NCBI GenBank assembly: GCA_947574215.1
Contig: CANPIX010000004.1
Span: 1-59,443, forward strand
From: an uncultured Mycoplasmatota bacterium
GTDB lineage: Bacteria; Bacillota_I; Bacilli_A; RF39; UBA660
Direction of reading: 5' to 3'
Length of the DNA stretch: 59,443 bases
Part shown: positions 11,536 to 59,443 of the stretch, one piece after another
How positions within the stretch are numbered: the stretch's first letter is position 1
How the letters are laid out: each line of letters begins with the position of its first letter
Made by a program: the position numbers and the translations under genes
Notes under the pieces: generated by a model
Databases searched by the model: none
What the model was told of the DNA's origin: nothing
The model's input: only the letters and a program-made list of their open reading frames with translations

Positions 11536-11560
11536 GAATATATTTAAAAGAGGTGTTTAT

Positions 11561-29980: not shown

Positions 29981-29998
29981 AAATAAATGGTGAGAAAT

Positions 29999-41789: not shown

Positions 41790-41854
41790 GTTATGTCCCC
41801 TTTAAAAATACTTAAAAATGCTTTATAATAAATATATGTTTTAGGAGGCAAAAT

Positions 41855-44304: not shown

Positions 44305-44747
44305 TGCGAGTGGTTGTACAGCGAAGTAAAGAAAGTAGTGTATGCGTAAATGGAAATTTGGTTTCAAAAATCAAAAAGGGTCTTGTTCTTTTGGTAGGAT
44401 TTACGGACACGGACACCACTGAAGATATTGATTATATAGTTAGAAAAATTGTAAATATGCGTTTGTTTCACGATGAAAATGGAGTAATGAATAAAAGTAT
44501 TTTAGAAGTAGAAGGAAGTATTTTATCTATAAGTCAGTTTACTTTATACGCAGATACAAAAAAAGGCAATCGTCCTTCTTATACAAAAGCCATGAAAAAA
44601 GAAGAAGCAATAAAACTTTATGATTTATTGAATCAAAAACTTAGTAAACAAGTAAAAACACTTACCGGAGTATTTGGTGCGGATATGAAAGTTAGCATTT
44701 TAAACGATGGTCCTATTACTATATTGTTGGATTCAAAGGATAAGTAA
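44304..44747 (+). CDS. dtd: D-aminoacyl-tRNA deacylase
   Basis: MRVVVQRSKESSV...SQFTLYADTKKGNRPSY...NDGPIT signature. Confidence 0.95.
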   Translation: MRVVVQRSKESSVCVNGNLVSKIKKGLVLLVGFTDTDTTEDIDYIVRKIVNMRLFHDENGVMNKSILEVEGSILSISQFTLYADTKKGNRPSYTKAMKKEEAIKLYDLLNQKLSKQVKTLTGVFGADMKVSILNDGPITILLDSKDK

Positions 44748-44827
44748 ACTAAGAAGTTGGAACTAGAAATTAACTATAAGACATGAATGAAATGGGTACT
44801 AATTTTTAACACCTTTTTATTTGCCTG

Positions 44828-44836
44828 TGCTATAAT
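44828..44836 (+). promoter_or_regulatory. extended -10 element (TGCTATAAT) upstream of murE
   Basis: TGnTATAAT match 22 nt upstream of ATG 44858. Confidence 0.35.
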
Positions 44837-44857
44837 ACTAGTAAAGTGAGGTATATT

Positions 44858-46222
44858 ATGTTAGAGTTAAAAACTGATTCTAGAAAAGTAGAAAAGGGAG
44901 ATACATTTCTTGCGATTCGTAACGTAAATCGAGATGGACATGATTATATAGAGCAAGCCATTCAAAATGGTGCAAGTAAAATAATTTGTGAAAAAGGATC
45001 CTACTCAGTAGAAACTGAAATCGTATCAAATACAAAAGAGTATTTAAATGAATATTTGTATACAAATTATTACCCTAAAATAAAAGATATGAATTTTATT
45101 GGAGTGACAGGCACCAATGGAAAAACGACAATTTGTTTTCTAGTGTATCAAATGCTTAAAAAATTAGGTCATAACCCAGCGTATATTGGAACCATTGGAT
45201 TTTATTATAAAGATACAAAAAAAGAATTAAATAATACAACGCCTGATACGGATCTTTTATATGAAATGTTTCTAGAAGCAAAAGAAAATAATTGTGATAC
45301 CATTGTGATGGAAATAAGTAGTCATGCACTCGATAAAAATAGAATTTATGGACTAGAGTTTGATGAAGTGGCGTTTACAAATTTAACCCAAGATCATTTG
45401 GATTATCATGAAACAATGGATAAATATAAAGAAGCCAAACAAAAACTATTTAAACGTACGCGTAATCAAAAAATTGCCATTATCAATGGAGATGATCAGT
45501 ATGGAAAAGATTTTATATTTGATGAAAACAACAATACAATTATAAGTGCAAACAGCGGAAATTGCACGATTACTAGTATAGACTTTTCTCACTTGGATAC
45601 AAAAATCACCTTTTCTTTTGAAAAGACCAGTTACGAAACTACAATAAAAATGGTTGGAAGATACAACGTATACAATTACTTAACTGCACTTTTTCTTGTT
45701 AAAAATTTAGGGCATTCTATTGAAGAAATTTTAAATTTATCCAATGGATTGTCTGCCCCAAATGGACGTATGGAAAAAATAGATTATAAAACCAATAGTA
45801 TTTTTATTGATTATGCTCATACACCTGATGCTGTTGAAAATGTTTTAAAAAGTGCTGAAGAATATAAAAAAGGAAAAATAATTACAATAATAGGTTGTGG
45901 AGGAGATAGAGACCCGATGAAACGTCCTATAATGGGAAAAATTGCCGAAAAATTTTCAGATTATGTTCTTTTTACAAATGATAATCCTCGTACAGAAGAT
46001 GAAAGGAAAATTATGAACGACATTTTATCAGGCGTACAAAAAGATAATCATGAAGTTATTTTTGATAGAAAAGAAGCCATTCGTAAAGGAATAGAACTTT
46101 TAAAAGAAAATGATATTTTAATGATCTTAGGGAAAGGTCACGAAGATTATCAAATTATTGGCACTGAAAAACACCATTTTAGTGATAAAGAAGTTGTCGA
46201 AGAATATACAAAAGTAAATTAA
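44858..46222 (+). CDS. murE: UDP-N-acetylmuramoyl-tripeptide synthetase MurE (DNPR motif, meso-DAP type)
   Basis: GVTGTNGKTT P-loop. DNPR motif in FTNDNPRTED. Confidence 0.9.
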   Translation: MLELKTDSRKVEKGDTFLAIRNVNRDGHDYIEQAIQNGASKIICEKGSYSVETEIVSNTKEYLNEYLYTNYYPKIKDMNFIGVTGTNGKTTICFLVYQMLKKLGHNPAYIGTIGFYYKDTKKELNNTTPDTDLLYEMFLEAKENNCDTIVMEISSHALDKNRIYGLEFDEVAFTNLTQDHLDYHETMDKYKEAKQKLFKRTRNQKIAIINGDDQYGKDFIFDENNNTIISANSGNCTITSIDFSHLDTKITFSFEKTSYETTIKMVGRYNVYNYLTALFLVKNLGHSIEEILNLSNGLSAPNGRMEKIDYKTNSIFIDYAHTPDAVENVLKSAEEYKKGKIITIIGCGGDRDPMKRPIMGKIAEKFSDYVLFTNDNPRTEDERKIMNDILSGVQKDNHEVIFDRKEAIRKGIELLKENDILMILGKGHEDYQIIGTEKHHFSDKEVVEEYTKVN

Positions 46223-46237
46223 GAATTTACTTTTTTT
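46214..46237 (+). terminator. rho-independent terminator after murE
   Basis: GTAAATT-aag-AATTTAC hairpin followed by T7. An extended -10 TGTTATAAT (46239-46247) follows immediately. Confidence 0.45.
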
Positions 46238-46268
46238 ATGTTATAATCGATAGTAACAAGGTGAAAAA

Positions 46269-48143
46269 ATGAAATACGAAATAAAAAATGGAAGTGTTTT
46301 TTTAAACGGAAATTCTATATTGGACGAAATAAATTTCGATATTACTGAAAAAAGTCACATTGGCGTTGTAGGTAAGAATGGAAGTGGAAAAACAACTTTA
46401 TTAAAATCTTTGATAAACAATGAAATGTTAGAAGAAGGAATTGAAGAAACCTCACTATTCATAAACAAAATAGGAAACTTTTCTATCGGGTATTTAGAAC
46501 AAGTCACGTTCGATAATGAAAATACAACTCTTTTTGAAGAAATAAAAAAATCTTTTCAAGAAATAATAGATTTAGAGAAAAAAATAGATACATTGGTTAA
46601 GAAAATGGAAACCAATTCCTCATTGAAATTTATAAATGAATACACCACTTGTTTGGAACGATACGAAACTTTAGGAGGGTATACTTACCAAAAAGAATAC
46701 GAAATCATGCTAAAAAAATTTGGTTTCACAGAAGACGATAAATGTAAAAAAATAAGCTCTTTTTCGGGTGGGGAAAGAACAAAAATTGCATTTTTAAAAT
46801 TACTACTAAAAAAACCAGATATTTTATTTTTAGATGAGCCAACCAATCATTTAGATATCGAGGCAATCGTTTGGTTAGAAAATTATTTAAAAAACTATAA
46901 AAAAGCTTTTGTAGTGGTTTCTCATGATCGTATGTTTTTAAACAATATTGCAAACACCATATACAATATTTCTAATAAAAGAGTTATAAAATATGTAGGA
47001 AATTACGAAGACTTTGAACGGATAAGAAAAGAAAATTATGAAAAAAATGTAAAAAATTATGATTTACAACAAAAGGAAATAAAAAGATTAAGAACACTTT
47101 ATGAAAAATTTAGATACAAACCTTCCAAAGCAAGTATGGCGTTATCTCAACTTCGTAGAATAGAAAGAATGGAGAAGATTGATAAACCCCTAAGAATTAG
47201 TGAAAAAACATTTAAAACCAATTTAAATACAATGGAACCTAGTGGCAAAACCGTTTGTACTTTAAAAAATTTAGAAGTCGGTTTTACAGTTCCTTTCTTT
47301 ACTTTGAATTTAGAAATTTTAAATGGAGAAAAAATTGGCGTAATTGGAGCGAACGGAAGTGGAAAATCAACACTTTTGAAAACCATTTTTGGAATACTAA
47401 AACCGCTTCACGGCAATGTTTCTTTTGGCTATCATGTTCGTATTGGATATTTTGACCAGTCTCTAAAAATGAACCAGGAAGAACATACGATTTTAGAAGA
47501 GTTTAAAAGCGCTTTTCCAAATTGTTTGGATAACGAAGCTAGAAATGCATTAGGAGCTTTTCTTTTTACAGGAGAAGAAACAAATAAAAAAGTATCGGTT
47601 TTATCTGGAGGAGAAAAAGTACGCTTACAATTGTGTAAAATTTTATACAATAAACCTAACTTTCTTTTGTTGGATGAACCAACCAACCACTTGGATTTGG
47701 TAGGAAAAGAACAGTTAGAATCAATTTTACAGTGTTACAAAGGAACGATATTGTTTGTTTCCCATGATCGATATTTTGTAAAAAAAATTGCATCAAAATT
47801 AATTGTTTTTGGGGAAACGGGAGCAAGTATTTTTCCTTATGGCTACGAAGAATATGTAAATAAGAAAAAAGAAAAAGAAATAGAAATTCCAAAAACAAAT
47901 AAAATAGAGAAAAATACAGAAAAGAAAAGTAATCCTTTTGCTTCTCTAAAAAAAATAGAAAATGAACTAGAAAAATTAGAGAAAGAAAAAAAGTTAACAT
48001 TGGAAGAAATGTATAAAAAAGAAAATTTTCTAGATTATATCAAACAAAATGAAATGCAAAAAAATCTAAATCAAATTGAAGAAAAATTAAAATTACTAGA
48101 AAAAAATTGGGAAGAATTAACGGAATTAGAGAACAAAAACTAG
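46269..48143 (+). CDS. ABC-F family ATPase with C-terminal coiled coil
   Basis: Two ABC cassettes (GKNGSGKTT/LSGGE-like FSGGER and GANGSGKST/LSGGEK) and no TM domain. Confidence 0.9.
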   Translation: MKYEIKNGSVFLNGNSILDEINFDITEKSHIGVVGKNGSGKTTLLKSLINNEMLEEGIEETSLFINKIGNFSIGYLEQVTFDNENTTLFEEIKKSFQEIIDLEKKIDTLVKKMETNSSLKFINEYTTCLERYETLGGYTYQKEYEIMLKKFGFTEDDKCKKISSFSGGERTKIAFLKLLLKKPDILFLDEPTNHLDIEAIVWLENYLKNYKKAFVVVSHDRMFLNNIANTIYNISNKRVIKYVGNYEDFERIRKENYEKNVKNYDLQQKEIKRLRTLYEKFRYKPSKASMALSQLRRIERMEKIDKPLRISEKTFKTNLNTMEPSGKTVCTLKNLEVGFTVPFFTLNLEILNGEKIGVIGANGSGKSTLLKTIFGILKPLHGNVSFGYHVRIGYFDQSLKMNQEEHTILEEFKSAFPNCLDNEARNALGAFLFTGEETNKKVSVLSGGEKVRLQLCKILYNKPNFLLLDEPTNHLDLVGKEQLESILQCYKGTILFVSHDRYFVKKIASKLIVFGETGASIFPYGYEEYVNKKKEKEIEIPKTNKIEKNTEKKSNPFASLKKIENELEKLEKEKKLTLEEMYKKENFLDYIKQNEMQKNLNQIEEKLKLLEKNWEELTELENKN

Positions 48144-48170
48144 CAAAAATGCTTAATTTGCTAGTTTTTT
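48140..48170. terminator. bidirectional terminator between the ABC-F gene and the convergent endolysin gene
   Basis: CTAGCAAA-aatgcttaa-TTTGCTAG perfect 8-bp stem. An A-run precedes it and T6 follows. Each arm contains the stop codon of one of the two convergent genes. Confidence 0.6.
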
Positions 48171-48997
48171 ATTTGGATGGCATCAATTTCTTTACCATAG
48201 ATTCCCGCATAACCTTGATTTGTATTATCTACTTTAGAAACCCAAGGCAACCAGTTTCCGTTTTTTAAATGAACACGGTAAATTGCATTTTTGATTTGCA
48301 CACCATCTATATTTTTAAAATTTTTTATTGAAGGCGTTTGATTGTTATTTAACCATTCGCTCCAATTCTTTTGTTCTTTAAAATGAAGTCGGTACACGAG
48401 TTTGTCAATTTTTATTCCTCCAATAGAGTTACCAAAATTTCCCGCGTATTCGTTTGTATGATTTGTCACTATAGGAAGCCATTTTTCTTTTTTATTATCG
48501 TATACTTGGTAATGAATCGAATCGTCTATTTTTTGGTTTAAATATTGATAAAAAGAAGTACAGCAAGATTTGGTCATGGATTTAGATTCATCTCCAAACC
48601 ATTTTCTTGGTTTTACATCAATGTGAGTATAATAATTATTTCCACCACATTTATATCCAATCCCAAATTGATGGCCTAAATCCTCTAAAGCAAGAACAAC
48701 AACTTTACTATCTATTTTTTTTCCAAAGGAATCCAGAAAACAAATATCACAAGCGTATCCTTGATGGGTGTTGCTGCCAGTTCCCCCAATAGTACTCTCA
48801 TAGCTTTTGCATCGATAACCACTAGAAATATTCCCTCGAACCGCTCCTATTTTTTTCATTACTTGTTCTAAAAGAAAGGGCAAAGTGTCTGCAATAAGAA
48901 TATTATGCTCTCTACCACATTTGCATTTCCATTCAGAAACGTTAAAATGTTCAGTCAATTGTGTACAATCCCTAGAATCGTATTTTATTAATTTCAT
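48161..48997 (-). CDS. endolysin-like peptidoglycan hydrolase: N-terminal M15 (Peptidase_M15_3-type) zinc peptidase plus three C-terminal ChW-like repeats
   Basis: SGYRC..Y...GG...SNTHQGYACD...THIDV (H-x6-D...H zinc site). C-terminal repeats of the form YRVHLKNGNWLPWV...GYAGIYGKEIDAIQIK. No signal peptide. 4-nt overlap with the upstream holin gene. Confidence 0.8.
   Translation of the reverse strand: MKLIKYDSRDCTQLTEHFNVSEWKCKCGREHNILIADTLPFLLEQVMKKIGAVRGNISSGYRCKSYESTIGGTGSNTHQGYACDICFLDSFGKKIDSKVVVLALEDLGHQFGIGYKCGGNNYYTHIDVKPRKWFGDESKSMTKSCCTSFYQYLNQKIDDSIHYQVYDNKKEKWLPIVTNHTNEYAGNFGNSIGGIKIDKLVYRLHFKEQKNWSEWLNNNQTPSIKNFKNIDGVQIKNAIYRVHLKNGNWLPWVSKVDNTNQGYAGIYGKEIDAIQIKN
48164..48517 (-). 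repeat. three ChW-like (clostridial hydrophobic W) cell-wall-binding repeats, at protein level
   Basis: IHYQVYDNKKEKWLPIV..GGIKIDK, VYRLHFKEQKNWSEWL..DGVQIKN and IYRVHLKNGNWLPWV..IDAIQIKN. Confidence 0.6.
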
Positions 48998-49275
48998 AAA
49001 TCCTCCTTTTGGTTTAAAATGGTTTTTAAAATGATATTGATATTGTGAAAAATGTCATAAATGCCACCCGCCGCAATTCCAGAAACAGCAATTGCCATAT
49101 TAAAATCTTTAGTAAAAAACCATTCTGTAAAAGCAACGCTGATACCAATGAGGGCATTTTGAACAGGAATCATATAATTCTCAAACCAAGGGAGCTTCTT
49201 AGCTATTTTCCCCGTAATCCAAGATATCAATAAGGTAATAGTACAAAAAAATTCAGTTGAGTTTTCTTTTATCAT
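48994..49275 (-). CDS. holin (93 aa, 2-3 TM segments, charged C-terminus)
   Basis: Hydrophobic segments FFCTITLLISWITGKIA, IPVQNALIGISVAFTEWFF and MAIAVSGIAAGGIYDIF. Tail KTILNQKEDL. Lies immediately upstream of the endolysin and overlaps it. Confidence 0.7.
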   Translation of the reverse strand: MIKENSTEFFCTITLLISWITGKIAKKLPWFENYMIPVQNALIGISVAFTEWFFTKDFNMAIAVSGIAAGGIYDIFHNINIILKTILNQKEDL

Positions 49276-49808
49276 AAATGTAGGGTGATTTCATTCATAT
49301 GATCAAAATAAGAATGAGAATAAGTCTTCATTGTTTTAAAGATTTGACTTTCTAAAAAAGAAATAGTGTCTAAGGCATGCTGGTACGAAGCAACCACAAT
49401 CCCTTTTTTTTGAACTAAAAAACTTTGTTGGATCCGATAAGAAGTAAAATTGTTTTCTAATTGAAAAAAAGTATAGGTTTTTTCATTATTTTGTTTTGTC
49501 AAAGATGATTTTATTTTTTTGTTATTTGCAAGAACATAACTATAAATTGGACCAATAAAATGAGAATGAAACAAACGAAATTCTAAAACGTCGTAACTTC
49601 TAATTTTAGGTTTTTGGTACCATTCTAATTTTATAACAACAAAAGATTCTAGAAAATTTGTAGGAATTGTATAAACAGATATTTTTTTGTATTTGGACTC
49701 AAAAAAATAAAATTCTTTGTTAAGGATTAGTTCTTCTTTAGCTTGAGTATTTTTATAGCCAACAAAAAAAACAATCAAAACCAAAAGAATTTGTATTCTT
49801 TTCACCAC
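49272..49808 (-). CDS. secreted hypothetical protein; first gene of the holin-endolysin operon
   Basis: AAGGAGG RBS upstream of an in-frame GTG at 49808. Signal peptide KRIQILLVLIVFFVGYKNTQA/KEE. ATGA overlap with the holin gene. Confidence 0.5.
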   Translation of the reverse strand: MVKRIQILLVLIVFFVGYKNTQAKEELILNKEFYFFESKYKKISVYTIPTNFLESFVVIKLEWYQKPKIRSYDVLEFRLFHSHFIGPIYSYVLANNKKIKSSLTKQNNEKTYTFFQLENNFTSYRIQQSFLVQKKGIVVASYQHALDTISFLESQIFKTMKTYSHSYFDHMNEITLHL

Positions 49809-49888
49809 AAGCACCTCCTTTCTTATTTCATCATAAAGATTGTTTTCGTTTTGTAAAAGCAACATAAAGTTCCGTCCCTAAAGCCAAT

Positions 49889-49913
49889 TGTCGAAACCTG
49901 TCGTTTCTTGTCG
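49889..49913. promoter_or_regulatory. three TGTCG motifs phased at exactly 10 bp in the divergent control region
   Basis: TTGTCGAA (49888), CTGTCGTT (49898) and TTGTCGAA (49908). This locally GC-richer patch lies inside the 217-bp intergenic region between the lysis operon and the toxin operon. Confidence 0.4.
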
Positions 49914-50025
49914 AATTAAGAATTCAATTTGTATTCTTAAACTAAGAAAGGAGAACGTATATGCAAACGTAAAATAAGAAAAATTTTTTTAGTAAAAGTC
50001 ATAAAAAGAAAGAAGAGGAGAAAAA

Positions 50026-50640
50026 ATGAATTTAGACGAATTATATTTTAAAGATAATTTTACAAAAGAGGGAGATAAGGTTGATTTAGAAATCAATAAA
50101 CTAACAGCAGAATGTATTACAAGTAAAAATAATAACTTTCATTTAGATAGTTCTGGGAACTTAAGTGTTTATTCAATTACTACAGAAAAGCCAATTGTAA
50201 CAGAAACTTTAACAGACGTACTTTATCCAATAGGTTCCATTTACATGAATGTGAATCCGGTAAGTCCAAGTGCTTTATTGGGTGGAACATGGGAACAAAT
50301 AAAAGATAGATTTTTATTAGCGTGTGGAAATAATTATATAAATGGAACAATGGGTGGAAGTGAATCTCATTTTCATGAAACAACCAATCATGAGCTTACT
50401 TACGAGGAAATGCCTTCACACAGACATATTGGGCTTTTTTGTGACAACGATATAAGATTAAACAACAATGGTGGAACAGAAAGTTATTCTTTAACTTGGA
50501 CAGGAGGAAATAAAGGACACACCGTGCCATTTGTAACAGGACCTGCCGGGGCTTCAAAAGCTCACAACCATGGAAACACGAATAACGCTAGTAGTATGCC
50601 ACCTTATTTAGCGGTCTACGTATGGAAAAGAATTGCATAA
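50026..50640 (+). CDS. phage tail-fibre/baseplate-like protein (C-terminal His-rich receptor-binding-type domain)
   Basis: GAGGAG RBS. YPIGSIYMNVNPVSPSALLGGTWEQIKDRFLL...GGSESHFHE..HELTYEEMPSHRH...AHNHGN...MPPYLAVYVWKRIA matches the conserved C-terminal module of prophage tail-fibre/baseplate proteins of Bacillota. Confidence 0.65.
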   Translation: MNLDELYFKDNFTKEGDKVDLEINKLTAECITSKNNNFHLDSSGNLSVYSITTEKPIVTETLTDVLYPIGSIYMNVNPVSPSALLGGTWEQIKDRFLLACGNNYINGTMGGSESHFHETTNHELTYEEMPSHRHIGLFCDNDIRLNNNGGTESYSLTWTGGNKGHTVPFVTGPAGASKAHNHGNTNNASSMPPYLAVYVWKRIA

Positions 50641-50650
50641 GGGTGTTTTT

Positions 50651-53600
50651 ATGAAAGAAATTATTAGTTTACGAAAACCTCGCGAAAAACATTTTTTAAA
50701 TGAAGACGGAAGTTTTACTCTATACGCTTATGATTCTGATATACATTATCTAAAAAATGGAGAATATGTTGAAATAGATAATAATTTGGTGGAACAAAAA
50801 GATTTTTTTACAACAAAAGATAATACCTTAGGCATCTATTTTGCAAATCAAAATAGTAAGGATTTTATAGTAAAAGTAGAAAAAGATACTTATAAAATTC
50901 AGTTTGACTTATTGGAAAAATATTTAGATCCTGAAATTAAAGAAAATTCCATTCTTTATAAAAATATTTTAGAAAATATTGATATAAAGTACGATATTTT
51001 TTCCAAGAAAGTAAAAGATACCATCATTCTAAAAAAGAAAAGCAACCAAGTTACGAATTTAAAATACAAAATCAAAACCAATTTACAACTTACATTAGAT
51101 AAAAATAAGATTCTTATCTTTGATAAAAACGAGCATTTGTTTACTATAGAAAAACCAACATTGAACGATAAAAATCTTACAAACTATCCTATAGAATATA
51201 CTCTTATTCCAATAGAAGATGGTTACCTTCTTGGTTTTCAAATTAACGAAGAAATTTTAATGAAAGAAGAACTGTATCCTTTAACAATTGATCCCACACT
51301 CGATATAGAAGAACAACAAAATATTTTTGACACTTATATTTATTCTGGAGATACAAACGACAATCGAGATGATAGAGATTTTGTAAGAATTGGAGTTAAC
51401 CAATCCAATCGTGTTTATAGAACACTTCTTAAATTCAATCTTCCAACTCTTCCAACCGCTTGCAATATTATCAAAGCGATCGCTTGTTTAACTTCTCACA
51501 AAGACAATTATGTAAATGTTGAAAATATGCAATTTTCTCCTATTACAGTTCACAAGATAACCGCCCCATGGAATGAAAAATACGCCAATTGGGAAAATAT
51601 GCATGACAAATACGATGAAAAAATCGAAGACTGGTTTTTAGGAGAACATTCTGTTGTTGTACCTAAAGAAGGAGGAGGTTTTCAAATAGAATTGCATTCC
51701 AATTGCTTTTCTATCACAAATTTAGTAAAAAAGTGGTATGCTGGAGAAGAAAATAATGGCGTTTTACTCAAATACGAAACAGAAATATATGAAGAAAGTA
51801 CAGAGTATGAAGCACAAGATTATATTTTTTATACCAAAAATAGTTCTATAGAAAACTCTAAACCAACTTTAATTATTCAATATCGTAATCAAAACGGATT
51901 GGAAAATTATATGTCTTATCAAACCATTAATTTAGAACAAGGAATTTCTTATATAAATAATTTAAATGGAAATGTTACGAATGTTTTTGATATCATTAAG
52001 ACATTAGATAATAAATTTCCTTTGCAATTAAATTTAATTTATAATACCAATGATGTGATTGCAAATACGAACCTAGGTTGTGGAATAGGTTTTCAATGGA
52101 ATTATTACCAAACGCTAAAAGAAGTTAATTTTGATAATGTTTCATTAGAATACTTAGATAGTGACGGAACATTACACTATTTTAGAAAAATAGATGACAA
52201 ATTAATTGACGAAGACGGATTGGGGTTTACAGTTACAAAAGAAAATGATATTTATACTTTAACAGATAAAAGTGATAATAAATTAGAATTTACAAAAATA
52301 AATCCAGTATTGAGTGCTTATTATTTAACCAAAATAATAAATTCTAATCAAGATACGATTACTATAAATTATAATAGTAACATACAAATTAGTAAGCTAT
52401 ATGATGGAGCAAACGAGGAAACCAATATTCATTATTATGGTGATGAAATTGAGATTTTAAATGGGTATACGACTACAAATATTAGGCTTGAAAATAATCG
52501 TGTTACCTCAATAAAAACTAAATATGGAACAACAAATCTTTATTATAATAATCAGAATCTTATAACAAAAATAACGGATAATAATGGTTTAAGTAAAGAA
52601 TATACTTATTTTGATTGTGTTCCTTATCGATTGAAGAAAATAACAGAAATGGGTTTAAACAACAAAGTAGGAAATTCTTTAGAATTTCAATATGAATATA
52701 ATGTTACCCGCATAAGGGATTCTAAAGGAAGAGTCAGTGCTTATACCTTTAACAATGAAGGAAATACTCTAGGGATTACCACCTTAAGAAGTAAAGACGA
52801 TTTTTTAAATGGGTATGGAATAAAACAAGAATATTATGAGAACGAAAATTTAAAAAATAAAAATAAAATTTCTTTAGAGACAAATCCTACCAAATATACA
52901 AATAATCTTATCATGGATTCTAGTTTTGAGAAAAATGTATATACAAATACATCAACCGATTTTGCAAGAACTGGAAAGAAAAGTTTAAAAATTACAGATA
53001 CCTTTTCCTATCCTTTACCGAATAGAACCAAAACGGATATCTATACGTTTAGTGGATATTTTAAAACAAAAGATGCATTTACATTATCTTTATTAGAAAA
53101 TGATCAAAAAATAAAAGAAACAAAAATTTTGCAAAGTGATGATTTTGTTAGAACTTCAATTTTCAGTAACTTAGATTCATTAAAAACTTATAAAATTCAA
53201 ATAGCACCTTTAAATGAAAATTCTGTTGTTTATATGGATGATATCCAATTAGAAGTAGGAGAAAGCTCAAACTATTATAACTTAATAGAGAATTCAGATT
53301 TTGAAAATGGTTCAAACTGTTGGGATTTTTATGGAAGTGATCGATTTGGTAATGAAGTAAATAATGGAGAAATTCTTACTTTAGAAAACGGGGTTAAAGC
53401 CTATACTTTTCATAGTAAATTATTTACAAGTTCTTCTCTAAACCAAACACTACCTATAAGTGGCAAAAAAAATGATTCTTATCGTTTATCTTTTTGGTAT
53501 AAAAATGAAGGAGTTAAAAATCCATTAGAAACTGAATTTGCCAATATGGCTTTATTAGGATTTGCCTATAAAGAAGAAGAGGATAGCGGTAGAGGTTTAC

Positions 53601-56600
53601 TTCCAATCAATTTAAATTTACATAATGATGAGTGGCAACTTTTTGAAAGCGTATTTACTGCAGAAGAAGACTACGATAATCTTTGGTTAACTTTCATTTC
53701 ACAAGATGAAGTCAACAACTTTTCTTTTACACATATTACATTAACGAAAGACTTAGAAAATAATAGTTATGGATATGATAGTGAAGGCAATTTAACTACA
53801 GCTATTGGCAAAAATAATGAAGTTACAAAATTTCAATACGATCAAAAAAATCAATTGACCAGCATATTTGAACCAAAAGGAAACCATTTTTTGTTTGAAT
53901 ACGATAATACAAATACAAATAAAGTATTACAAGGCATCTCTAAAAAAGGAATTACCAATAAAATCACATACGATGCCTATAATAATCCTATAAAAACAAG
54001 AATTATAAATAACGACACTCATACAATAGATGGAAAATCCTTTTATATACGTTTAAAAGGAACAGACAAATATATCCTTCCTAATTATAGAGAATTAAAG
54101 CTTGTTTTAGAAACACCTACTTGTAGTAATGAGAGTTGGGATTTTACAAAGGAAGAAAATACAAAGAGCTATACAATAAAAAGTAGTGTTATCCCTTTTT
54201 ATTTCGTAAAAAATTCTAACGAATTTAATTTAGCTAAAAACTTTCCTACATCCTATGAAATGATTGAAAATAAAAATGGCAGTTATACAATAAAAGAGGC
54301 AACTTCTCAGTTATGTTTGACATTAGAAAATAATCAATTTATTGGAAAACTATACGATGAAAACGACCCAAATCAACAATTTTATCTAGAACCTTTTGAA
54401 AGTAAAAAATATATAGAAACTAGCGCAGAATATACAGACGATGGAAAATTTATGAAAAGTAGAACTGATGCTTTAGATAGAACAACTGAATATGACGTTA
54501 ATCCTATAACGGGTCTTGTTAAAAATATTACAGATCCACTTAAACAAATTACAGATTATACCTACAACGATAAAGAACAAATCACGAAAATAGAAAAAAA
54601 TAATAAATCAACAAGTTATACGTATAATGAACAAAATTTACTTTCTAAAATCACTTGCAACAACAAAGAATACAACTTTACGTACGATGATTTCTTAAAC
54701 ACCAAAGAAGTTAAAATAAATAACCAAACACTAGTCACAAATGAATATGAAGAAAATAATGGTAATTTACTATCTTCAAACTATGCAAACCATACCAGCA
54801 TAAATTATACTTATGATGAATTTGATCGAGTAAAAACACTAACTAAAGGAAATAAAACCTATACCTATTTATACAACAATCAAAACGATTTAGTCAAAAT
54901 CACTTCAAATAATGAAACGTATAACTATTACTATGATTTAGCACAAAGACTTTCTAGATATGAATTTAATCATAATAGCATCGACTACGAATATGACTTA
55001 AATAATAATATTACCAAGAAGATATACAAATATAACAATACCACCAAACTTATAAATTATACCTATGATGAAGACGATTCTATTGTTAAAGTTAGCTTGG
55101 ATGATAAGGAAGTAAACTTTATTTACGATAACTTAGGAAGATTAAATAAAAAGGATATCAATGGAAACTTACCAGTAGAATACGAATATTACTCCAATGG
55201 AAATAAAACTTCCTTTGTATTAAAAAGTATGAAAATAGAAAATGATTTCTATGAATATGTTTATGATGAAGTCTATAACATCACAGATATTTATAAAAAT
55301 AAGGAATTATTAAATCATTATGAATATGATAACGAAAATGAACTTATAGAAGATAATAATTATTCATTAAATAGAACGTATAAATATACATATGACCATT
55401 CTGGAAATATATTAAAAAAAGAAGAATATGATATAAATACAAGCATCTTACTTCAAGAAAACAATTACGAATACTCTAATAGCAATTGGAAAGATCAACT
55501 AACCAAATTCAATGATGAGGAAATCACCTATGATGAAATAGGAAACCCAATTACGATTGGAAATACTTATTTATCATGGTATGGAAGAGAATTACAAAGT
55601 TTAGAAAATAACATGTCTAATATCGAATATTTCTATAACAAAGAAGGAATAAGAATTCAAAAAAATATAAATGGAGTTAAAACAAACTATTTTGTAGAGA
55701 ACTCAAATATTGTATTTGAAGAAACAAACGGAAAAGAACTATACTTTAAAAGAACTGATGAGGGAGAATTAATAGGGTTTGTTTATATGGATGAAACCTA
55801 TTATTACAAAAAGAACTATCAAGAAGATATTCTAGGTATATATGACAGTAATTATAATCTAATTTGTACCTATGAATACGATAGTTATGGTGCGATTATC
55901 AGTATCAAAGATGCTCTTGGAAATAAAGTAGAAGATGAAACTCATATAGGAAATATCAACCCATATCGATATAGAAGTTACTATTACGATAGAGAAACCA
56001 ATCTTTATTACTTAAATACTAGATACTATAATCCAGTTTGGGGTAGATTTTTGAATGCGGATGGTATCATTGGAACAAATGAGAATTATTTAGGTTATAA
56101 CCTATACGCTTATTGTGAAAATAATCCTGCTATTCGTGTAGATAGTGAAGGAGAGTTTGCTTTAACTTTAGCCTTAGGAGCAATTGCTGCAGGTGTCTTT
56201 GCTTTAGGAGCTTATTGCGGTGCAAAAGCATTACAACCTGTTGCTGGAGTAGTTACCAAAAGAATAGAGACTGTTTATGAAAGAAAAAAGGAAAAAGAAA
56301 GAGAAGATGCAAAAAAAATTGAAAAAGCAAATACAAAAACTGCAGTAAATATATATGAAAGAAATAATAAACCTTGTACAGAAGCATATTTTACAAAAGG
56401 TAAAAGAGATGTAGAAAGAGGAAAAAGATTAACGATAGAGCAATCTAAAATAGCAATAGATACAGGCAACCATGTTATGTGTGATAACCAATTTTATGCC
56501 CTACAAGTTGCTATGTATTATGGGAAAGATATGGAAGGCCCAGAAATCGATAAAAATCAATATCTTGGATATAAATACTATTATCACTATCATCCAGATA

Positions 56601-56650
56601 GAGATTCACATCGTCATATATGGTTTTTAGGGATACCGTGGAGTAAGTAA
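50651..56650 (+). CDS. Rhs/YD-repeat polymorphic toxin (about 2000 aa), leaderless. It has a DNRLRE-like N-terminal region, two CBM/galactose-binding-like modules, a ricin-like insert, the Rhs core and a variable C-terminal toxin.
   Basis: Many YD repeats (YTYNDKEQITKI, YTYNEQNLLSKI, YEYDLNNNITKK...). Rhs-associated core NPYRYRSYYYDRETNLYYLNTRYYNPVWGRFLNADG...NNPAIRVDSEGE. AAGGGTG RBS upstream of ATG 50651. No hydrophobic N-terminal segment. Confidence 0.9.
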   Translation: MKEIISLRKPREKHFLNEDGSFTLYAYDSDIHYLKNGEYVEIDNNLVEQKDFFTTKDNTLGIYFANQNSKDFIVKVEKDTYKIQFDLLEKYLDPEIKENSILYKNILENIDIKYDIFSKKVKDTIILKKKSNQVTNLKYKIKTNLQLTLDKNKILIFDKNEHLFTIEKPTLNDKNLTNYPIEYTLIPIEDGYLLGFQINEEILMKEELYPLTIDPTLDIEEQQNIFDTYIYSGDTNDNRDDRDFVRIGVNQSNRVYRTLLKFNLPTLPTACNIIKAIACLTSHKDNYVNVENMQFSPITVHKITAPWNEKYANWENMHDKYDEKIEDWFLGEHSVVVPKEGGGFQIELHSNCFSITNLVKKWYAGEENNGVLLKYETEIYEESTEYEAQDYIFYTKNSSIENSKPTLIIQYRNQNGLENYMSYQTINLEQGISYINNLNGNVTNVFDIIKTLDNKFPLQLNLIYNTNDVIANTNLGCGIGFQWNYYQTLKEVNFDNVSLEYLDSDGTLHYFRKIDDKLIDEDGLGFTVTKENDIYTLTDKSDNKLEFTKINPVLSAYYLTKIINSNQDTITINYNSNIQISKLYDGANEETNIHYYGDEIEILNGYTTTNIRLENNRVTSIKTKYGTTNLYYNNQNLITKITDNNGLSKEYTYFDCVPYRLKKITEMGLNNKVGNSLEFQYEYNVTRIRDSKGRVSAYTFNNEGNTLGITTLRSKDDFLNGYGIKQEYYENENLKNKNKISLETNPTKYTNNLIMDSSFEKNVYTNTSTDFARTGKKSLKITDTFSYPLPNRTKTDIYTFSGYFKTKDAFTLSLLENDQKIKETKILQSDDFVRTSIFSNLDSLKTYKIQIAPLNENSVVYMDDIQLEVGESSNYYNLIENSDFENGSNCWDFYGSDRFGNEVNNGEILTLENGVKAYTFHSKLFTSSSLNQTLPISGKKNDSYRLSFWYKNEGVKNPLETEFANMALLGFAYKEEEDSGRGLLPINLNLHNDEWQLFESVFTAEEDYDNLWLTFISQDEVNNFSFTHITLTKDLENNSYGYDSEGNLTTAIGKNNEVTKFQYDQKNQLTSIFEPKGNHFLFEYDNTNTNKVLQGISKKGITNKITYDAYNNPIKTRIINNDTHTIDGKSFYIRLKGTDKYILPNYRELKLVLETPTCSNESWDFTKEENTKSYTIKSSVIPFYFVKNSNEFNLAKNFPTSYEMIENKNGSYTIKEATSQLCLTLENNQFIGKLYDENDPNQQFYLEPFESKKYIETSAEYTDDGKFMKSRTDALDRTTEYDVNPITGLVKNITDPLKQITDYTYNDKEQITKIEKNNKSTSYTYNEQNLLSKITCNNKEYNFTYDDFLNTKEVKINNQTLVTNEYEENNGNLLSSNYANHTSINYTYDEFDRVKTLTKGNKTYTYLYNNQNDLVKITSNNETYNYYYDLAQRLSRYEFNHNSIDYEYDLNNNITKKIYKYNNTTKLINYTYDEDDSIVKVSLDDKEVNFIYDNLGRLNKKDINGNLPVEYEYYSNGNKTSFVLKSMKIENDFYEYVYDEVYNITDIYKNKELLNHYEYDNENELIEDNNYSLNRTYKYTYDHSGNILKKEEYDINTSILLQENNYEYSNSNWKDQLTKFNDEEITYDEIGNPITIGNTYLSWYGRELQSLENNMSNIEYFYNKEGIRIQKNINGVKTNYFVENSNIVFEETNGKELYFKRTDEGELIGFVYMDETYYYKKNYQEDILGIYDSNYNLICTYEYDSYGAIISIKDALGNKVEDETHIGNINPYRYRSYYYDRETNLYYLNTRYYNPVWGRFLNADGIIGTNENYLGYNLYAYCENNPAIRVDSEGEFALTLALGAIAAGVFALGAYCGAKALQPVAGVVTKRIETVYERKKEKEREDAKKIEKANTKTAVNIYERNNKPCTEAYFTKGKRDVERGKRLTIEQSKIAIDTGNHVMCDNQFYALQVAMYYGKDMEGPEIDKNQYLGYKYYYHYHPDRDSHRHIWFLGIPWSK
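56156..56647 (+). other. variable C-terminal toxin module of the Rhs protein (164 aa) downstream of the core cleavage motif
   Basis: Begins right after ...VDSEGE. Gly/Ala-rich hydrophobic helix FALTLALGAIAAGVFALGAYCGA, then a Lys/Glu linker, then a globular part ending in YYYHYHPDRDSHRHIWFLGIPWSK. Confidence 0.6.
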
Positions 56651-56676
56651 GAGAAGAAAGGAACCAAAAAATAAAT

Positions 56677-57411
56677 ATGCAAATAAAAAGAATGTCAAAA
56701 GAAGCATATCCAAAGTTTATAGATTATGTTTTTCAAACTTGTGATGTAGTCGAATTAAAAAAATATTCATCTGGGCATAACCATCAAAATCAACGAATAG
56801 TCAATATTATGTTGAGTGATTTACCGAAGAATTTAAATATTTCCTGTAAAAAAAAATGTATAGACTTACTATATATAAAATTTAAAAATAATCCTTTTAT
56901 ATTTGACCAAGATTATAAAAAATCATATGAAACGAATGATATGGGTTTAGATAGCAAAACCTTTCAAAAATTGGCGCAAAAAAGAAGAAAATCACTTATA
57001 AAAGGTAGTATTTATAATTATATCCATAATAAAGAAACCAATAACTTTTTATTAAAAAATAAATCTGATCTTATTTACGCCAGAGAAGATATTCATAAAA
57101 TAGGTGATATGGGTAATTCATACTATTTCTTCAAATTAAGTAAAAATATAAAACAAGAAATCCAAAATAAAAATTCTATATTTGCTTGGCGCTTTCCGAT
57201 CTCACTCGAAGATATATGCTTTTTTAATAAAAATGGTCTTTGTTGGCTTTGGTCCACTTCGCATGAAGAAATGTATGCAATATGTTTTCAAGAAGGTGAA
57301 GAAAAAGAATATGAATATTTAAAATCAATAGGAATCGAATTTGTAGAAGAAGAGTTTACACCAACTCCGAAAGAATATTTATTTTATTTAGAAGATGACT
57401 TAAAATACTAG
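56677..57411 (+). CDS. putative cognate immunity protein (244 aa, soluble), copy 1
   Basis: Starts 26 nt after the Rhs stop, with an AAAGGA RBS. No TM or signal peptide. The call rests on position. Confidence 0.55.
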   Translation: MQIKRMSKEAYPKFIDYVFQTCDVVELKKYSSGHNHQNQRIVNIMLSDLPKNLNISCKKKCIDLLYIKFKNNPFIFDQDYKKSYETNDMGLDSKTFQKLAQKRRKSLIKGSIYNYIHNKETNNFLLKNKSDLIYAREDIHKIGDMGNSYYFFKLSKNIKQEIQNKNSIFAWRFPISLEDICFFNKNGLCWLWSTSHEEMYAICFQEGEEKEYEYLKSIGIEFVEEEFTPTPKEYLFYLEDDLKY

Positions 57412-57440
57412 AAGCAAAAACAAATGCTTCTTTTCTTTTT
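57410..57440 (+). terminator. rho-independent terminator after immunity copy 1
   Basis: AGAAGCA-aaaacaaa-TGCTTCT hairpin followed by TTTCTTTTT. Confidence 0.55.
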
Positions 57441-57443
57441 ATA

Positions 57444-57452
57444 TGTTATAAT
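57444..57452 (+). promoter_or_regulatory. extended -10 (TGTTATAAT) inside the repeat unit, upstream of immunity copy 2
   Basis: Lies 3 nt after the terminator T-run. The same element recurs at 58350-58358 after copy 2. Confidence 0.4.
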
Positions 57453-57581
57453 GTAACTATACTGATAAAACTAACTGGTAAATATGAAGGATTTGAATAA
57501 AAGAAAATTAATTGGTAATTAATAGTTTTGTTAATTATTTCATTTATATAAATAAAGTTAGAAAGGAAACTAAAAATAAAT

Positions 57582-58316
57582 ATGCAAATAAAAAGAATGT
57601 CAAAAGAAGCGTATCCAAAGTTTATAGATTATGTTTTTCAAACTTGTGATGTAGTCAGATTAAAAAAATATTCATCTGGGCATAACCATCAAAATCAACG
57701 AATAGTCAATATTATGTTGAGTGATTTACCGAAGAATTTAAATATTTCCTGTAAAAAAAAATGTATAGACTTACTATATATAAAATTTAAAAATAATCCT
57801 TTTATATTTGACCAAGATTATAAAAAATCATATGAAACGAATGATATGGGTTTAGATAGCAAAACCTTTCAAAAATTGGCGCAAAAAAGAAGAAAATCAC
57901 TTATAAAAGGTAGTATTTATAATTATATCCATAATAAAGAAACCAATAACTTTTTATTAAAAAATAAATCTGATCTTATTTACGCCAGAGAAGATATTCA
58001 TAAAATAGGTGATATGGGTAATTCATACTATTTCTTCAAATTAAGTAAAAATATAAAACAAGAAATCCAAAATAAAAATTCTATATTTGCTTGGCGCTTT
58101 CCGATCTCACTCGAAGATATATGCTTTTTTAATAAAAATGGTCTTTGTTGGCTTTGGTCCACTTCGCATGAAGAAATGTATGAAATATGTTTTCAAGAAA
58201 GTGAAGAAAAAGAATACGAATATTTAAAATCAATAGGAATCAAATTTGTAGAAGAAGAGTTTACACCGACTCCGAAAGAATATTTATATTCTTTAGAAGA
58301 TGACTTAAAATATTAG
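57582..58316 (+). CDS. putative immunity protein, copy 2 (6 substitutions in 244 aa versus copy 1)
   Basis: Translation is identical to copy 1 except E26R and five changes within residues 201-237. Confidence 0.55.
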   Translation: MQIKRMSKEAYPKFIDYVFQTCDVVRLKKYSSGHNHQNQRIVNIMLSDLPKNLNISCKKKCIDLLYIKFKNNPFIFDQDYKKSYETNDMGLDSKTFQKLAQKRRKSLIKGSIYNYIHNKETNNFLLKNKSDLIYAREDIHKIGDMGNSYYFFKLSKNIKQEIQNKNSIFAWRFPISLEDICFFNKNGLCWLWSTSHEEMYEICFQESEEKEYEYLKSIGIKFVEEEFTPTPKEYLYSLEDDLKY

Positions 58317-58346
58317 AAGCAAAAAATAAACGCTTCTTTTCTTTTT
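58315..58346 (+). terminator. rho-independent terminator after immunity copy 2
   Basis: AGAAGC-loop-GCTTCT hairpin followed by TTTCTTTTT. Confidence 0.5.
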
Positions 58347-58349
58347 ATA

Positions 58350-58358
58350 TGTTATAAT
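58350..58358 (+). promoter_or_regulatory. extended -10 (TGTTATAAT) after immunity copy 2
   Basis: Duplicate of the element at 57444-57452. Confidence 0.35.
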
Positions 58359-58458
58359 ATAACTACATGATGAAAACGTAACTGAGCTAAATGAAAGTTA
58401 ATTTTTTCTTTTTTTGTTAGAAATAACAAGATTATATTTTTTGTCTAAATATACATGA

Positions 58459-58850
58459 AACTTTTTTAGTTCTATCGGATGTATTTGTGCGATTACAATT
58501 ACCATAAATTTGTTCCTTAGTATATTAAAAAAAGAAGTTAATAAATGCGTGTCCGAAAATAAACAAAAGAAAAATTTTGAATGCAGTGGTTCTGTTAATG
58601 GTAATACAGGTTTTATTAGTGATTCGGATTTGCATGGTTCAATACAACATGCCAGTTATGTACTATTGATGCAACAAACAAAAATATGGATTTGAATATA
58701 ACAATTTCAGATATTTATAATTTTGATAATTGGCGATGGTCAACTAATTGATTAGATATGGCAAATAATTTTGGACTTATATATTAAAAAACAGGATTAT
58801 AGGATATATCTTATTCAATATCTGTACCAATTGAAGAATAATAGTTTTAT
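58459..58850 (+). pseudogene. possible decayed coding remnant (short ORFs in three frames, no RBS)
   Basis: The 61-aa ORF 58510-58695 ends in TGA. It continues in shifted frames as ITISDIYNFDNWRWSTN*, LDMANNFGLIY* and KNRIIGYILFNICTN*. The pattern is compatible with a frameshifted gene fragment, but no family was recognised. Confidence 0.2.
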
Positions 58851-58890
58851 TAATTTTAGAAGGAAAAGAAATAGAAGAAGGTAATAAGCC

Positions 58891-59373
58891 ATGAAAAAAA
58901 AGTTTATTATAATTATTTTGAGCATAATAAGTTGTGTGATGATTATAGGAGTACTTTTTATGTATTTATCTAGCATTAATTTTGCTTATAAAATTAACTG
59001 GAATATTGATATTCCAAATCCCAAAAAAGTAATTTCTAAATATAATAATACCGGATTTCAATATGGTTTATATTTAGATATATTTCATTATAATCAAAGA
59101 GAAATAATGCAACTTATATCAAAATTAAATTTTCAAAAAATAGACAGATCAGAAAAACTAAAGCTAACTCAAAAATACAATGAATTTATGAATAATCTTG
59201 AAGAAGAACTTCAAAAAAAATTTGATGATGTAATTCAACCAGAAACCAATTTTAACAACAATAACTACTATGTTTATTTGGAAAAAAATAGTAATAAATC
59301 AAACTACTGTTTATTATTAATGGTTCTCGATGTTATTAATAATAAAGTTTATGTTATACAATACTTTAAATAA
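58891..59373 (+). CDS. membrane-anchored hypothetical protein (160 aa)
   Basis: GAAGAAGG upstream. N-terminal TM FIIIILSIISCVMIIGVLFMYL. No motif recognised. Confidence 0.45.
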   Translation: MKKKFIIIILSIISCVMIIGVLFMYLSSINFAYKINWNIDIPNPKKVISKYNNTGFQYGLYLDIFHYNQREIMQLISKLNFQKIDRSEKLKLTQKYNEFMNNLEEELQKKFDDVIQPETNFNNNNYYVYLEKNSNKSNYCLLLMVLDVINNKVYVIQYFK

Positions 59374-59443
59374 CAAGAATATAATATGATTGCAAAAAAA
59401 TTAATAAAAAAAGAGGATGCCAAATTCACATTTAAAGAAATTA

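Follow-up and report, generated by a model that had tools for sequence, protein, structure and literature searches.

The 59,443-nt stretch analyzed here (hereafter, the window), from contig CANPIX010000004.1 of an uncultured Mycoplasmatota bacterium, carries toward its right-hand end an operon for a giant Rhs toxin, placed back to back with a holin-endolysin operon. On the comparative evidence, we consider it probable that the two operons constitute a compact (∼10-11 kb), phage-derived toxin island in the chromosome of a gut member of the Bacilli, and that the holin and endolysin would release the toxin in a manner resembling the type 10 secretion system (T10SS). Judged by sequence, a holin, an adjacent leaderless hydrolase, and a linked leaderless cargo, by which a T10SS is recognized, are all present. 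An earlier note on this DNA had proposed the cassette as a dedicated release device for the Rhs protein; the prophage and co-occurrence analyses described below support that proposal, and the gene arrangement suggests that release would depend on the cassette.

Gene content of the island

The genes of the island, and the last gene of the window, are as follows.

48161-48997, minus strand: endolysin, 278 aa (Peptidase_M15_3, phrog_894; no signal peptide)
48994-49275, minus strand: 93-aa holin, Hol44 / Phage_holin_5_2 type, with two to three hydrophobic (transmembrane, TM) segments; its stop overlaps the endolysin start
49272-49808, minus strand: c10 protein, 178 aa, first gene of the lysis operon (Sec-type signal/anchor helix and beta-sandwich domain)
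49809-50025, no strand: divergent control region, 217 bp (alignment with related loci)
50026-50640, plus strand: Gp10_C protein, 204 aa, no signal peptide (PF21939 at 2e-17)
50651-56650, plus strand: leaderless Rhs polymorphic toxin, 1999 aa (DNRLRE, YD repeats, Rhs core)
56677-57411, plus strand: immunity-like gene, 244 aa, cluster c8 (no known family)
57582-58316, plus strand: second immunity-like copy, 244 aa (tandem duplicate)
58891-59373, plus strand: 160-aa protein, TM segment at its N-terminus (31% identical homologue in the array of locus L035)

As the earlier note had described, the minus-strand operon starts directly after the ABC-F gene and consists of three open reading frames (ORFs), both junctions of which overlap by 4 nt, stop over start; the 217-bp spacer and the divergent operon encoding a toxin of about 2000 residues were found as well. 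The note had ended the feature at 57411. The island instead continues, with a tandem duplication at 56644-58365, in which the immunity-like gene is repeated together with the spacer 3′ of it (period 905 bp, 97% identity), giving rise to the second immunity-like copy.

The Rhs gene most likely starts at the ATG at 50651 and not at the TTG at 50633, because its homologues all begin MKEIEL..LRK.REKHFL; in none of them does an ORF extend upstream of this leaderless start. Residues 1-232 comprise conserved beta domains with only a weak match to DUF7948, and are followed by a DNRLRE / carbohydrate-binding module (CBM)-like domain (approximately residues 233-415; 1e-20). Farther along are a lectin/CBM-like region that includes a weak ricin-B match at about residues 1212-1260, a YD shell (Pfam RHS_repeat, 6e-19; YD_repeat_2x was also matched), and a Rhs_assc_core domain (1e-16, residues 1749-1840). 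The core ends in ...NNPAIRVDSEGEF, which we take to be a variant of the PxxxxDPxGL cleavage motif. The AF2 model of residues 1-491 (pLDDT 74.5) was all-beta, and its DNRLRE part matched the polysaccharide-binding CBMs 7vbo (E 1e-5) and 8wab. Within the N-terminal region, conservation is highest over the first 70 residues (54% mean pairwise identity). At the other end of the protein, directly after the predicted autoproteolysis motif, the C-terminal domain opens with a strongly hydrophobic helix, FALTLALGAIAAGVFALGAYCGAKAL (56120-56200, the first ∼25 residues after DSEGE), which may serve as a membrane-inserting or translocation element; the C-terminal ∼160 residues had no Pfam or PDB sequence match.

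No export handle was found in the N-terminus of the Rhs protein by Pfam, NCBIfam, or structure search, in agreement with the earlier note. Its N-terminus matched no known export or trafficking domain in these searches; the protein has no signal peptide and no PAAR, LXG/WXG, VgrG-binding, or TcdB/TcaC domain, and no LysM or wall-anchor domain was detected in it. Neither this protein nor any aligned homologue has a hydrophobic N-terminus. Because it lacks a signal peptide, the Rhs protein would fold in the cytoplasm, and a 230-kDa shell folded there cannot use Sec; nor can a shell of ∼230 kDa diffuse through intact Gram-positive peptidoglycan, given the porosity of the wall. Release by the holin and endolysin is favored because a holin and a hydrolase are the only conserved neighbors that could let the Rhs protein out.

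In the endolysin, an M15 zinc peptidase domain at the N-terminus is followed by three repeats of ∼40 aa at the C-terminus that presumably bind the wall; an N-terminal hydrophobic segment is absent. Its identification as an M15 peptidase stood (Peptidase_M15_3 at 23.4 bits against the Pfam cut-off of 23.2; PHROG phrog_894 'endolysin' at 1e-14), and the protein is ∼30% identical to M15 endolysins of deposited phages, with no close relative in scans of viral contigs. The repeats, which the earlier note had called ChW, are ChW-like by eye only, as Pfam reported no ChW match in them at E ≤ 0.01. The holin scored 22.7 bits against Phage_holin_5_2, under the Pfam cut-off of 29.2, and a search of 5.8 billion proteins returned only 17 relatives. 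The close ones (72-80% identity; L095-L098) always occur in a block of c10, holin, and endolysin, divergent from Gp10_C and Rhs, beside ABC-F. The distant ones (∼52% identity, PF16079; L099 and L100) lie in siphophage late modules, in the order Dit, Tal, several ORFs, holin, and GH25 endolysin. Because these distant relatives precede GH25 endolysins in siphophage late modules, the 93-aa protein is, by homology, a genuine phage-type holin, which bears out a call that its Pfam score alone did not reach; by the same comparison, the lysis cassette is clearly of phage ancestry.

The gene c10 has a GTG start after a strong Shine-Dalgarno (SD) sequence, AAAGGAGGTG. The AF2 model of its product was confident (pLDDT 89) and matched only generic beta-sandwich and pilin-like folds, and no Pfam or PHROG family was found for it. 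A word-index search gave only two matches; among 1.84 billion proteins the family counts only 45 representatives, the viral contigs scanned yielded none, and by the evidence available c10 does not appear to be a phage gene. The c10 family goes with the Rhs module in 11 compared loci, and in nine loci other than the window it lies upstream of Gp10_C with no holin beside it. Given this association, together with the overlap between c10 and the holin gene, c10 would be a module-associated gene that is translationally coupled to the holin in the window.

The c8 cluster recurs after Rhs genes in 10 loci, and the two 244-aa immunity-like proteins had no Pfam or PDB sequence match. The 160-aa protein is possibly an orphan immunity or accessory gene of a variable array, and its membership of the island is uncertain; a metagenome scan with it gave no match, nor did exact look-ups of this protein and both immunity copies. 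Across loci, the genes downstream group into a number of unrelated clusters (c6, c8, c11, c12, c17, and c18), with orphan Rhs fragments (c3) alongside, a pattern to be expected of polymorphic toxins, and the toxin and immunity roles are predicted accordingly by gene position and family.

No phage structural, integrase, type VII secretion system (T7SS), or type VI secretion system (T6SS) gene was found in the window: from 1 to 59 kb, no capsid, portal, terminase, tail, tape-measure, or integrase gene was detected. The earlier note had reported no T7SS or T6SS genes and, from 48.1 kb to the window end, no such phage genes. The prophage question was also addressed in a 20.7-kb contig of a sister strain (L101), which is 99.96% identical to window positions 41783-57774 and has an identical Rhs gene. 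Its order is RelA, Dtd, MurE, ABC-F, then endolysin, holin, and c10, divergent from Gp10_C, Rhs, and the immunity gene; these are followed by a truncated second immunity copy (15799-16059), two XRE-type HTH genes (15912-16665), a 220-aa ORF, HisS, and a 460-aa ORF (asparaginyl-tRNA synthetase by eye). In this strain the island measures ∼11 kb, is bounded by ABC-F and HisS, and contains no capsid, portal, terminase, tail, replication, or integrase gene. No prophage was thus evident in the sister strain or on the upstream, housekeeping side of the window, the DNA of the window being visible to 59.4 kb. The window strain diverges from L101 after 57774, with a full second immunity copy and ∼1 kb of unmatched DNA, and positions 58393-59443 are without a counterpart in L101; at its distal end, the island thus differs from strain to strain. 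Among tailocin features (tube, sheath, tape-measure, and baseplate), Gp10_C is the only tail-related gene in the island. Judged by the gene content of the visible DNA, the locus appears to be neither a tailocin nor a prophage.

Lysis pairs and control regions across the family

An alignment of the Rhs N-terminus was scanned against one genome per GTDB species, which yielded 116 confirmed stretches, and 80 loci were retrieved. All 80 loci derive from uncultured gut Bacilli ('Tenericutes' or 'Mycoplasma sp. CAG:776'-type metagenome-assembled genomes, MAGs), with mice, rabbits, ruminants, birds, and humans as source hosts. After simple ORF calling, all ORFs were clustered and representatives annotated, and lysis genes were then tallied. 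An endolysin-type hydrolase was present in 36 of the 80 loci, and in 35 of these 36 a holin-like small TM gene was adjacent. The hydrolases include M15, several M23 forms, Amidase_2, GH25, and proteins carrying CW_7 with LysM or SH3_3 wall-binding domains; among the holins are Phage_holin_4_1 (which we take to be the Pfam family of TcdE), Hol44-like proteins, and others. In all 36 loci the hydrolase gene is no more than 2.8 kb from the module, immediately upstream of it or immediately behind the immunity genes, and 29 of the 36 are on the Rhs strand. Beyond 3.6 kb upstream, 370 kb of flank contained no clustered hydrolase, a tally that unclustered hydrolases escape (for example, a 500-aa M23 protein in four loci resembling integrative and conjugative elements, ICEs). 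When only well-flanked loci were considered (≥3.6 kb of DNA upstream and ≥4.9 kb downstream; n = 37), a hydrolase was present in 24 (65%), and a hydrolase or holin-like gene in 27 (73%). The co-occurrence on which the earlier note had staked its proposal was thus observed, in that homologues of the Rhs N-terminus are recurrently flanked by holin/endolysin pairs drawn from many unrelated families.

Given that MAG-derived loci are phylogenetically non-independent, weight was placed on the number of distinct lysis-gene combinations and not on raw counts. When loci were ordered by similarity of the Rhs N-terminus, at least 10 holin/hydrolase combinations were distributed over at least 10 Rhs clades, with swaps also inside clades. 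Such non-orthologous displacement at a fixed position is, as we read these gene orders, the signature of a functional requirement and not of one historical accident. In the window's own clade, the whole block of c10, holin, and endolysin, divergent from Gp10_C and Rhs, is intact at two chromosomal sites, one beside ABC-F and the other beside rubrerythrin and Gmk, and the catalytic or wall-binding domain of the endolysin has been exchanged (M23 in L010; M15 with PG_binding_1 in L102).

The protein that the earlier note had termed tail-fibre-like does carry Gp10_C, a phage baseplate / tail-fibre tip domain, and has no hydrophobic leader. In addition, it proved to be a conserved and seemingly obligate partner of Rhs, its gene lying directly upstream of Rhs in 78 of the 80 loci; the gap between the two is often 1-40 nt, or is filled by a 120-aa coiled-coil gene. 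Such a coiled-coil protein (c4; 105-135 aa, no family) stands between Gp10_C and Rhs in 26 loci (e.g., L014:9606-9971), mostly where Gp10_C is of the long form (350-450 aa), and may act as a chaperone or adaptor. The idea that Gp10_C has a conserved anchor at its N-terminus found no support, conservation being 33% at the N-terminus versus 37% at the C-terminus. In 26 of the 80 loci (e.g., L050:7688-8170 and L017:8495-8956), a 150-175-aa protein consisting of Sigma70_r4_2 only is encoded directly upstream of Gp10_C; it corresponds to PHROG 'sigma factor / transcriptional activator' and is absent from the window's clade. Across the 80 loci, the module has no secretion ATPase or T7SS gene as a conserved companion.

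The settings of the module appear to be mostly chromosomal. The recurrent large flanking clusters, once candidates for phage tail genes, were rejected as such and are IleS, PBP/FtsI, MraY, and FtsW; a Pfam scan of 95 large flanking ORFs returned housekeeping families, with no terminase, portal, or capsid among the top families. Where lysis pairs lie upstream, the genes before them are YbbR, DinB, acetate kinase, HtpG, and MutS. In a minority of loci the setting is different. Three IMG/VR viral contigs carry the module, and in L071, L074, L078, and L084, as in the IMG/VR contigs L086 and L087, prophage tail genes are followed by holin, lysin, Gp10_C, and Rhs; a 650-aa phage tail fibre (L078 and L086) itself ends in Gp10_C. 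Four further loci (L032, L042, L050, and L080) all encode the 500-aa M23 protein (c34), with a large serine recombinase (c35) in L032, L050, and L080 and a TraG/VirB4-like ATPase in L032, and they appear to be ICE-like; a placement of the L032 group in prophages was rejected, its large upstream ORF being the TraG/VirB4-like ATPase. Deposited phage genomes gave essentially nothing, namely one match to the Rhs N-terminus at 26% identity. Hence the earlier note's view that the lysis genes stand outside a prophage holds for the sister strain and for the visible DNA of the window, and is qualified by the phage ancestry of the cassette and by the lineages in which the module resides on prophages or ICE-like elements. 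From these settings, the module seems to move among chromosomal islands, ICE-like elements, and prophages, taking along or re-acquiring a lysis pair each time.

The divergent control region of the window was aligned with the spacers of seven related loci (L005-L011), whose proteins are only ∼50% identical. The following elements were recognized.

49859-49873, no strand: operator-like palindrome O1, GMAAC-N5-GTTKC
49893-49907, no strand: operator-like palindrome O2, GMAAC-N5-GTTKC
-35 at 49857-49852 and -10 at 49835-49830, minus strand: promoter-like site, TTTACA-16-TATGAT
-35 at 49908-49913 and -10 at 49932-49937, plus strand: promoter-like site, conserved TTG...TAttCT
49946-49953, plus strand: conserved SD sequence, GAAAGGAG (alignment)
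49961-49972, plus strand: mini-ORF ATG CAA ACG TAA, leader of the toxin operon

O1 abuts the minus-strand -35 and O2 abuts the plus-strand -35, and in the aligned spacers the two palindrome copies are 27-34 bp apart. The exact palindrome occurs once in the 59-kb window, versus 0.14 times expected by chance, and exactly twice per locus in L005-L011, always in the divergent spacer; across all other loci there were four stray matches. With one mismatch allowed, L101 has only the two spacer sites. We read the pair as one symmetric, conserved regulatory element shared by both operons, which lends support at the level of sequence to their co-regulation, and the XRE-type HTH genes of the sister-strain island are candidate regulators of O1 and O2. 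O1 and O2 are also complementary to each other, variable centers included, with compensatory changes in five pairs, and so might form a hairpin or cruciform as an alternative to two protein-binding sites. The promoter assignments rest on conservation in the alignment, because a promoter consensus scan gave 16 sites versus a shuffled expectation of 12.6 and was judged not above it. A strong SD followed by an ATG-TAA start-stop is kept in seven of eight related loci, the window version being longer; its mini-ORF begins 7 nt after the SD and lies ∼55 nt upstream of the Gp10_C start. The leader region had no Rfam match.

Alternative explanations

Several observations weigh against release of the toxin by the linked cassette. 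The holin and the M15 domain are both marginal at Pfam thresholds. A frameshift or an assembly error divides the endolysin of the MAG L009 (3786-4657) into ORFs of 202 aa and 79 aa. Ten of the 37 well-flanked loci have no lysis genes within visible DNA, and in most of these 10, orphan toxin/immunity arrays reach the end of the visible 5 kb downstream. The visible DNA of the window ends in a variable array at 59.4 kb, and its last 1 kb differs from the sister strain. In the loci with prophage (L071, L074, L078, L084, L086, and L087) or ICE-like (L032, L042, L050, and L080) settings, the lysis genes could serve the element. Finally, co-evolution of Gp10_C with the Rhs N-terminus gave no signal (mirror-tree correlations of ∼0.16); because this test lent no support, a Gp10_C-Rhs complex is suggested by adjacency. 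As a separate observation, the split endolysin of L009 is the sole sign of cassette decay in the close clade.

The alternative that survives best, which we nevertheless judge unlikely, is that the holin, endolysin, and Gp10_C genes are left over from the degraded late region of a prophage that chanced to capture, or to adjoin, a Rhs toxin cassette, and are decaying or serve general autolysis. In its favor, the nearest outside relatives of the holin are genuine siphophage holins, Gp10_C is a phage tail domain in which the tail fibre of L078/L086 also ends, the module directly follows a prophage tail/lysis module in L071-type loci and IMG/VR contigs, and the L009 endolysin is split. However, even where species have diverged by ∼50% in the Rhs N-terminus, the ORFs remain intact and their junctions still overlap. 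A remnant would moreover require that at least 10 non-homologous lysis pairs, all strictly proximal, were repeatedly acquired or retained, and such pairs also accompany the module on ICE-like elements; to our knowledge, ICEs normally carry no holin-endolysin cassettes. The translational coupling predicted between the module-specific c10 and the holin, and the conserved operator pair common to both promoters, likewise argue against a remnant.

It also seems improbable that the lysis genes serve a phage or other mobile element on which Gp10_C, Rhs, and immunity genes travel as a moron, with release as a by-product and the island as a recent derivative. Such a passenger would account for the three IMG/VR viral contigs with the module, for the order of tail genes, holin, lysin, Gp10_C, and Rhs in L086/L087, for the serine recombinase and TraG/VirB4-like ATPase near the module in other loci, and for the difference between strains at the distal end of the island. 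Yet most loci are flanked by housekeeping genes with no structural genes (95 large flanking ORFs), the sister-strain island is without a structural, replication, or integrase gene, and deposited phages gave the single match to the Rhs N-terminus at 26% identity.

LXG/WXG substrates of type VIIb secretion (T7SSb) are helical, whereas the Rhs N-terminus is predicted by AF2 to be beta-rich. This difference, the lack of a conserved secretion ATPase or T7SS gene in the 80 loci and of any in the window, and the strictly proximal lysis pairs that it would leave unexplained make it very improbable that the conserved Rhs N-terminus is a signal for an unrecognized or distant system such as T7SSb, with the cassette unrelated, even though the extreme N-terminus is the best-conserved part of its region, the visible portion of the genome is 59 kb, and Rhs toxins of Listeria are reported to be tied to a T7SSb variant (PMC10327511).

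Under the preferred explanation, release of the toxin by its own holin and endolysin, a common regulator acting on the operator pair would switch on both arms, probably in a subpopulation of cells. The holin would permeabilize the membrane and the endolysin would cut peptidoglycan, and the ∼230-kDa Rhs cocoon, probably together with Gp10_C, would escape via lysis or a local breach of the wall; such release would be type-10-secretion-like, and colicin- or Tc-toxin-like. Once outside, the CBM-like domains and the receptor-binding-type Gp10_C would target competitor cells, presumably bacterial, and the C-terminal toxin, hydrophobic helix first, would kill those cells that have no immunity protein. 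More tentatively, as a possibility that we would not yet expect to hold, the island could serve as type locus for a widespread and as yet undescribed class of bacteriocins of high molecular weight in uncultured gut Bacilli (at least 116 stretches), in which a Rhs cocoon docked to Gp10_C is released by altruistic lysis through a co-regulated, exchangeable holin-endolysin cassette. If so, this class would be a hybrid of Tc-toxin/T10SS release and tailocin-style targeting.

Related systems and surrounding genes

In its presumed working, the locus is closest, by analogy, to the T10SS of Tc toxin operons, and the pathogenicity locus (PaLoc) of Clostridioides difficile is also close. ChiX of Serratia is an M15-type L-Ala-D-Glu endopeptidase, and its M15-type hydrolase is thus matched in the window. 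In Tc toxins, the TcB/TcC Rhs-repeat cocoon is folded in the cytoplasm and released by operon-embedded T10SS lysis (PMC10847048). In Yersinia entomophaga (YenLC/YenTc) and Serratia (ChiWXYZ), as in the window, a holin and a hydrolase are linked to a huge leaderless Rhs/YD-cocoon toxin, and release there is by controlled lysis of a subpopulation (PMC10847048). In contrast to these systems, the window's host is of Gram-positive type with no spanin; there is no TcA injection component, and a small Gp10_C tail-fibre-tip protein is present instead; the cargo is a polymorphic Rhs protein with immunity genes, presumably antibacterial, whereas Tc is an insecticidal ABC toxin; and holins and hydrolases of many families are interchanged in the window's family.

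The C. difficile PaLoc (TcdR, TcdB/TcdA, TcdE, and TcdL) similarly has leaderless giant toxins beside a phage-derived holin and an endolysin-like gene. Many loci of the window's family use Phage_holin_4_1, to which we assign TcdE, and the small Sigma70_r4 protein upstream of the module in 26 loci recalls TcdR, although the window's locus is without one. The phage-like holin TcdE has been connected with toxin release in the PaLoc (PMC10516005), and TcdL is what is left of a phage endolysin (PMC12485765), whereas the endolysin of the window appears intact. The toxins differ as well, a glucosyltransferase large clostridial toxin (LCT) in the one case and a Rhs shell in the other, as does regulation, for which the PaLoc has the sigma factor TcdR and the window the proposed palindromic operator pair.

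WapA of B. subtilis and S. suis has the same YD shell, Rhs core, variable C-terminus, downstream immunity gene, and N-terminal DNRLRE (PMC12704120). However, WapA has a Sec signal peptide and wall-anchoring domains (PMC12704120); the window's family has neither and is tied instead to Gp10_C and lysis cassettes. By descent, as its domains indicate, the toxin is a Rhs/WapA-like polymorphic toxin.

Lysis-released bacteriocins depend on lysis proteins (colicins and S-pyocins) or on holin-endolysin cassettes (diffocin and monocin). Colicins, S-pyocins, and R/F-type tailocins such as diffocin and monocin resemble the proposed system in altruistic lysis, a high-molecular-weight agent, phage-type receptor binding, and phage ancestry (PMC11830787). 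Unlike tailocins, the window has no sheath, tube, or baseplate genes, and the killing moiety would be a domain inside the Rhs cocoon and not a tail device. MuF toxins are also polymorphic toxins with immunity genes, carried on Firmicutes prophages and released within phage biology (PMC5576092), but they are head-associated MuF-domain fusions, whereas the window has a Rhs shell with a tail-fibre-tip partner, mostly outside prophages in its family.

A full-text literature search, including PMC3482391 and PMC13018210, found no holin-endolysin-linked Rhs toxin in Bacillota and no description of a Gp10_C partner. To that extent the earlier note's suggestion that the combination is undescribed can be kept; Tc toxins with a T10SS (PMC10847048) are nevertheless a precedent. 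The exit of giant signal-less Rhs/YD-shell toxins from Gram-positive cells is a recognized gap in knowledge: how WapA gets through the wall is described as unresolved (PMC12704120), and leaderless teneurin-like YD-shell toxins 'may utilize alternative mechanisms' (PMC13018210). The locus and its 80 relatives offer a concrete, testable answer for one large family, in which release would be coupled to a holin-endolysin cassette, as has lately been demonstrated for the Tc toxins of Gram-negative bacteria. The conserved tail-fibre-type partner could set the target range of the toxin, and the operator pair is a defined regulatory element bearing on co-induction of both operons. Moreover, genome-reduced, uncultured gut Bacilli would be investing in weapons deployed by altruistic lysis, a point relevant to competition among strains in the gut.

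The G+C content of the window is 27-30%. From position 1 to 48.1 kb, plus-strand housekeeping genes precede the island; the ten largest ORFs of 1-42 kb are all housekeeping, among them RecD2, MutS, XseA, ProS, Obg, RpoD, and a type IV pilus/Com ATPase, and RelA, Dtd, MurE, and ABC-F (named via Pfam families) follow at 42-48 kb. At the junction with the island, one further feature was read from the sequence.

48141-48172, no strand: inverted repeat CTAGCAAA...TTTGCTAG, then a T-run

Rich in A and T and bordered by A- and T-runs, this repeat sits where the ABC-F and endolysin genes converge and overlaps the stop codon of the latter; from these features it is predicted to be, as seems likely, a bidirectional terminator. 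A terminator scan did not flag it, its loop being longer than 8 nt. Two observations concern the housekeeping region. The ORF at 29987-32899 has RpoD-like sigma-70 regions 1.2-4 within residues 185-441, followed by ∼530 further C-terminal residues with no Pfam match at 1e-5, which makes it unusually long for a primary sigma factor. The products of two adjoining genes at 11534-15710 are a cadherin-like beta-sandwich protein and an M6 (InhA-like) metallopeptidase of 965 aa; the latter ends in a C-terminal type I dockerin, which is unexpected in reduced-genome gut Bacilli.

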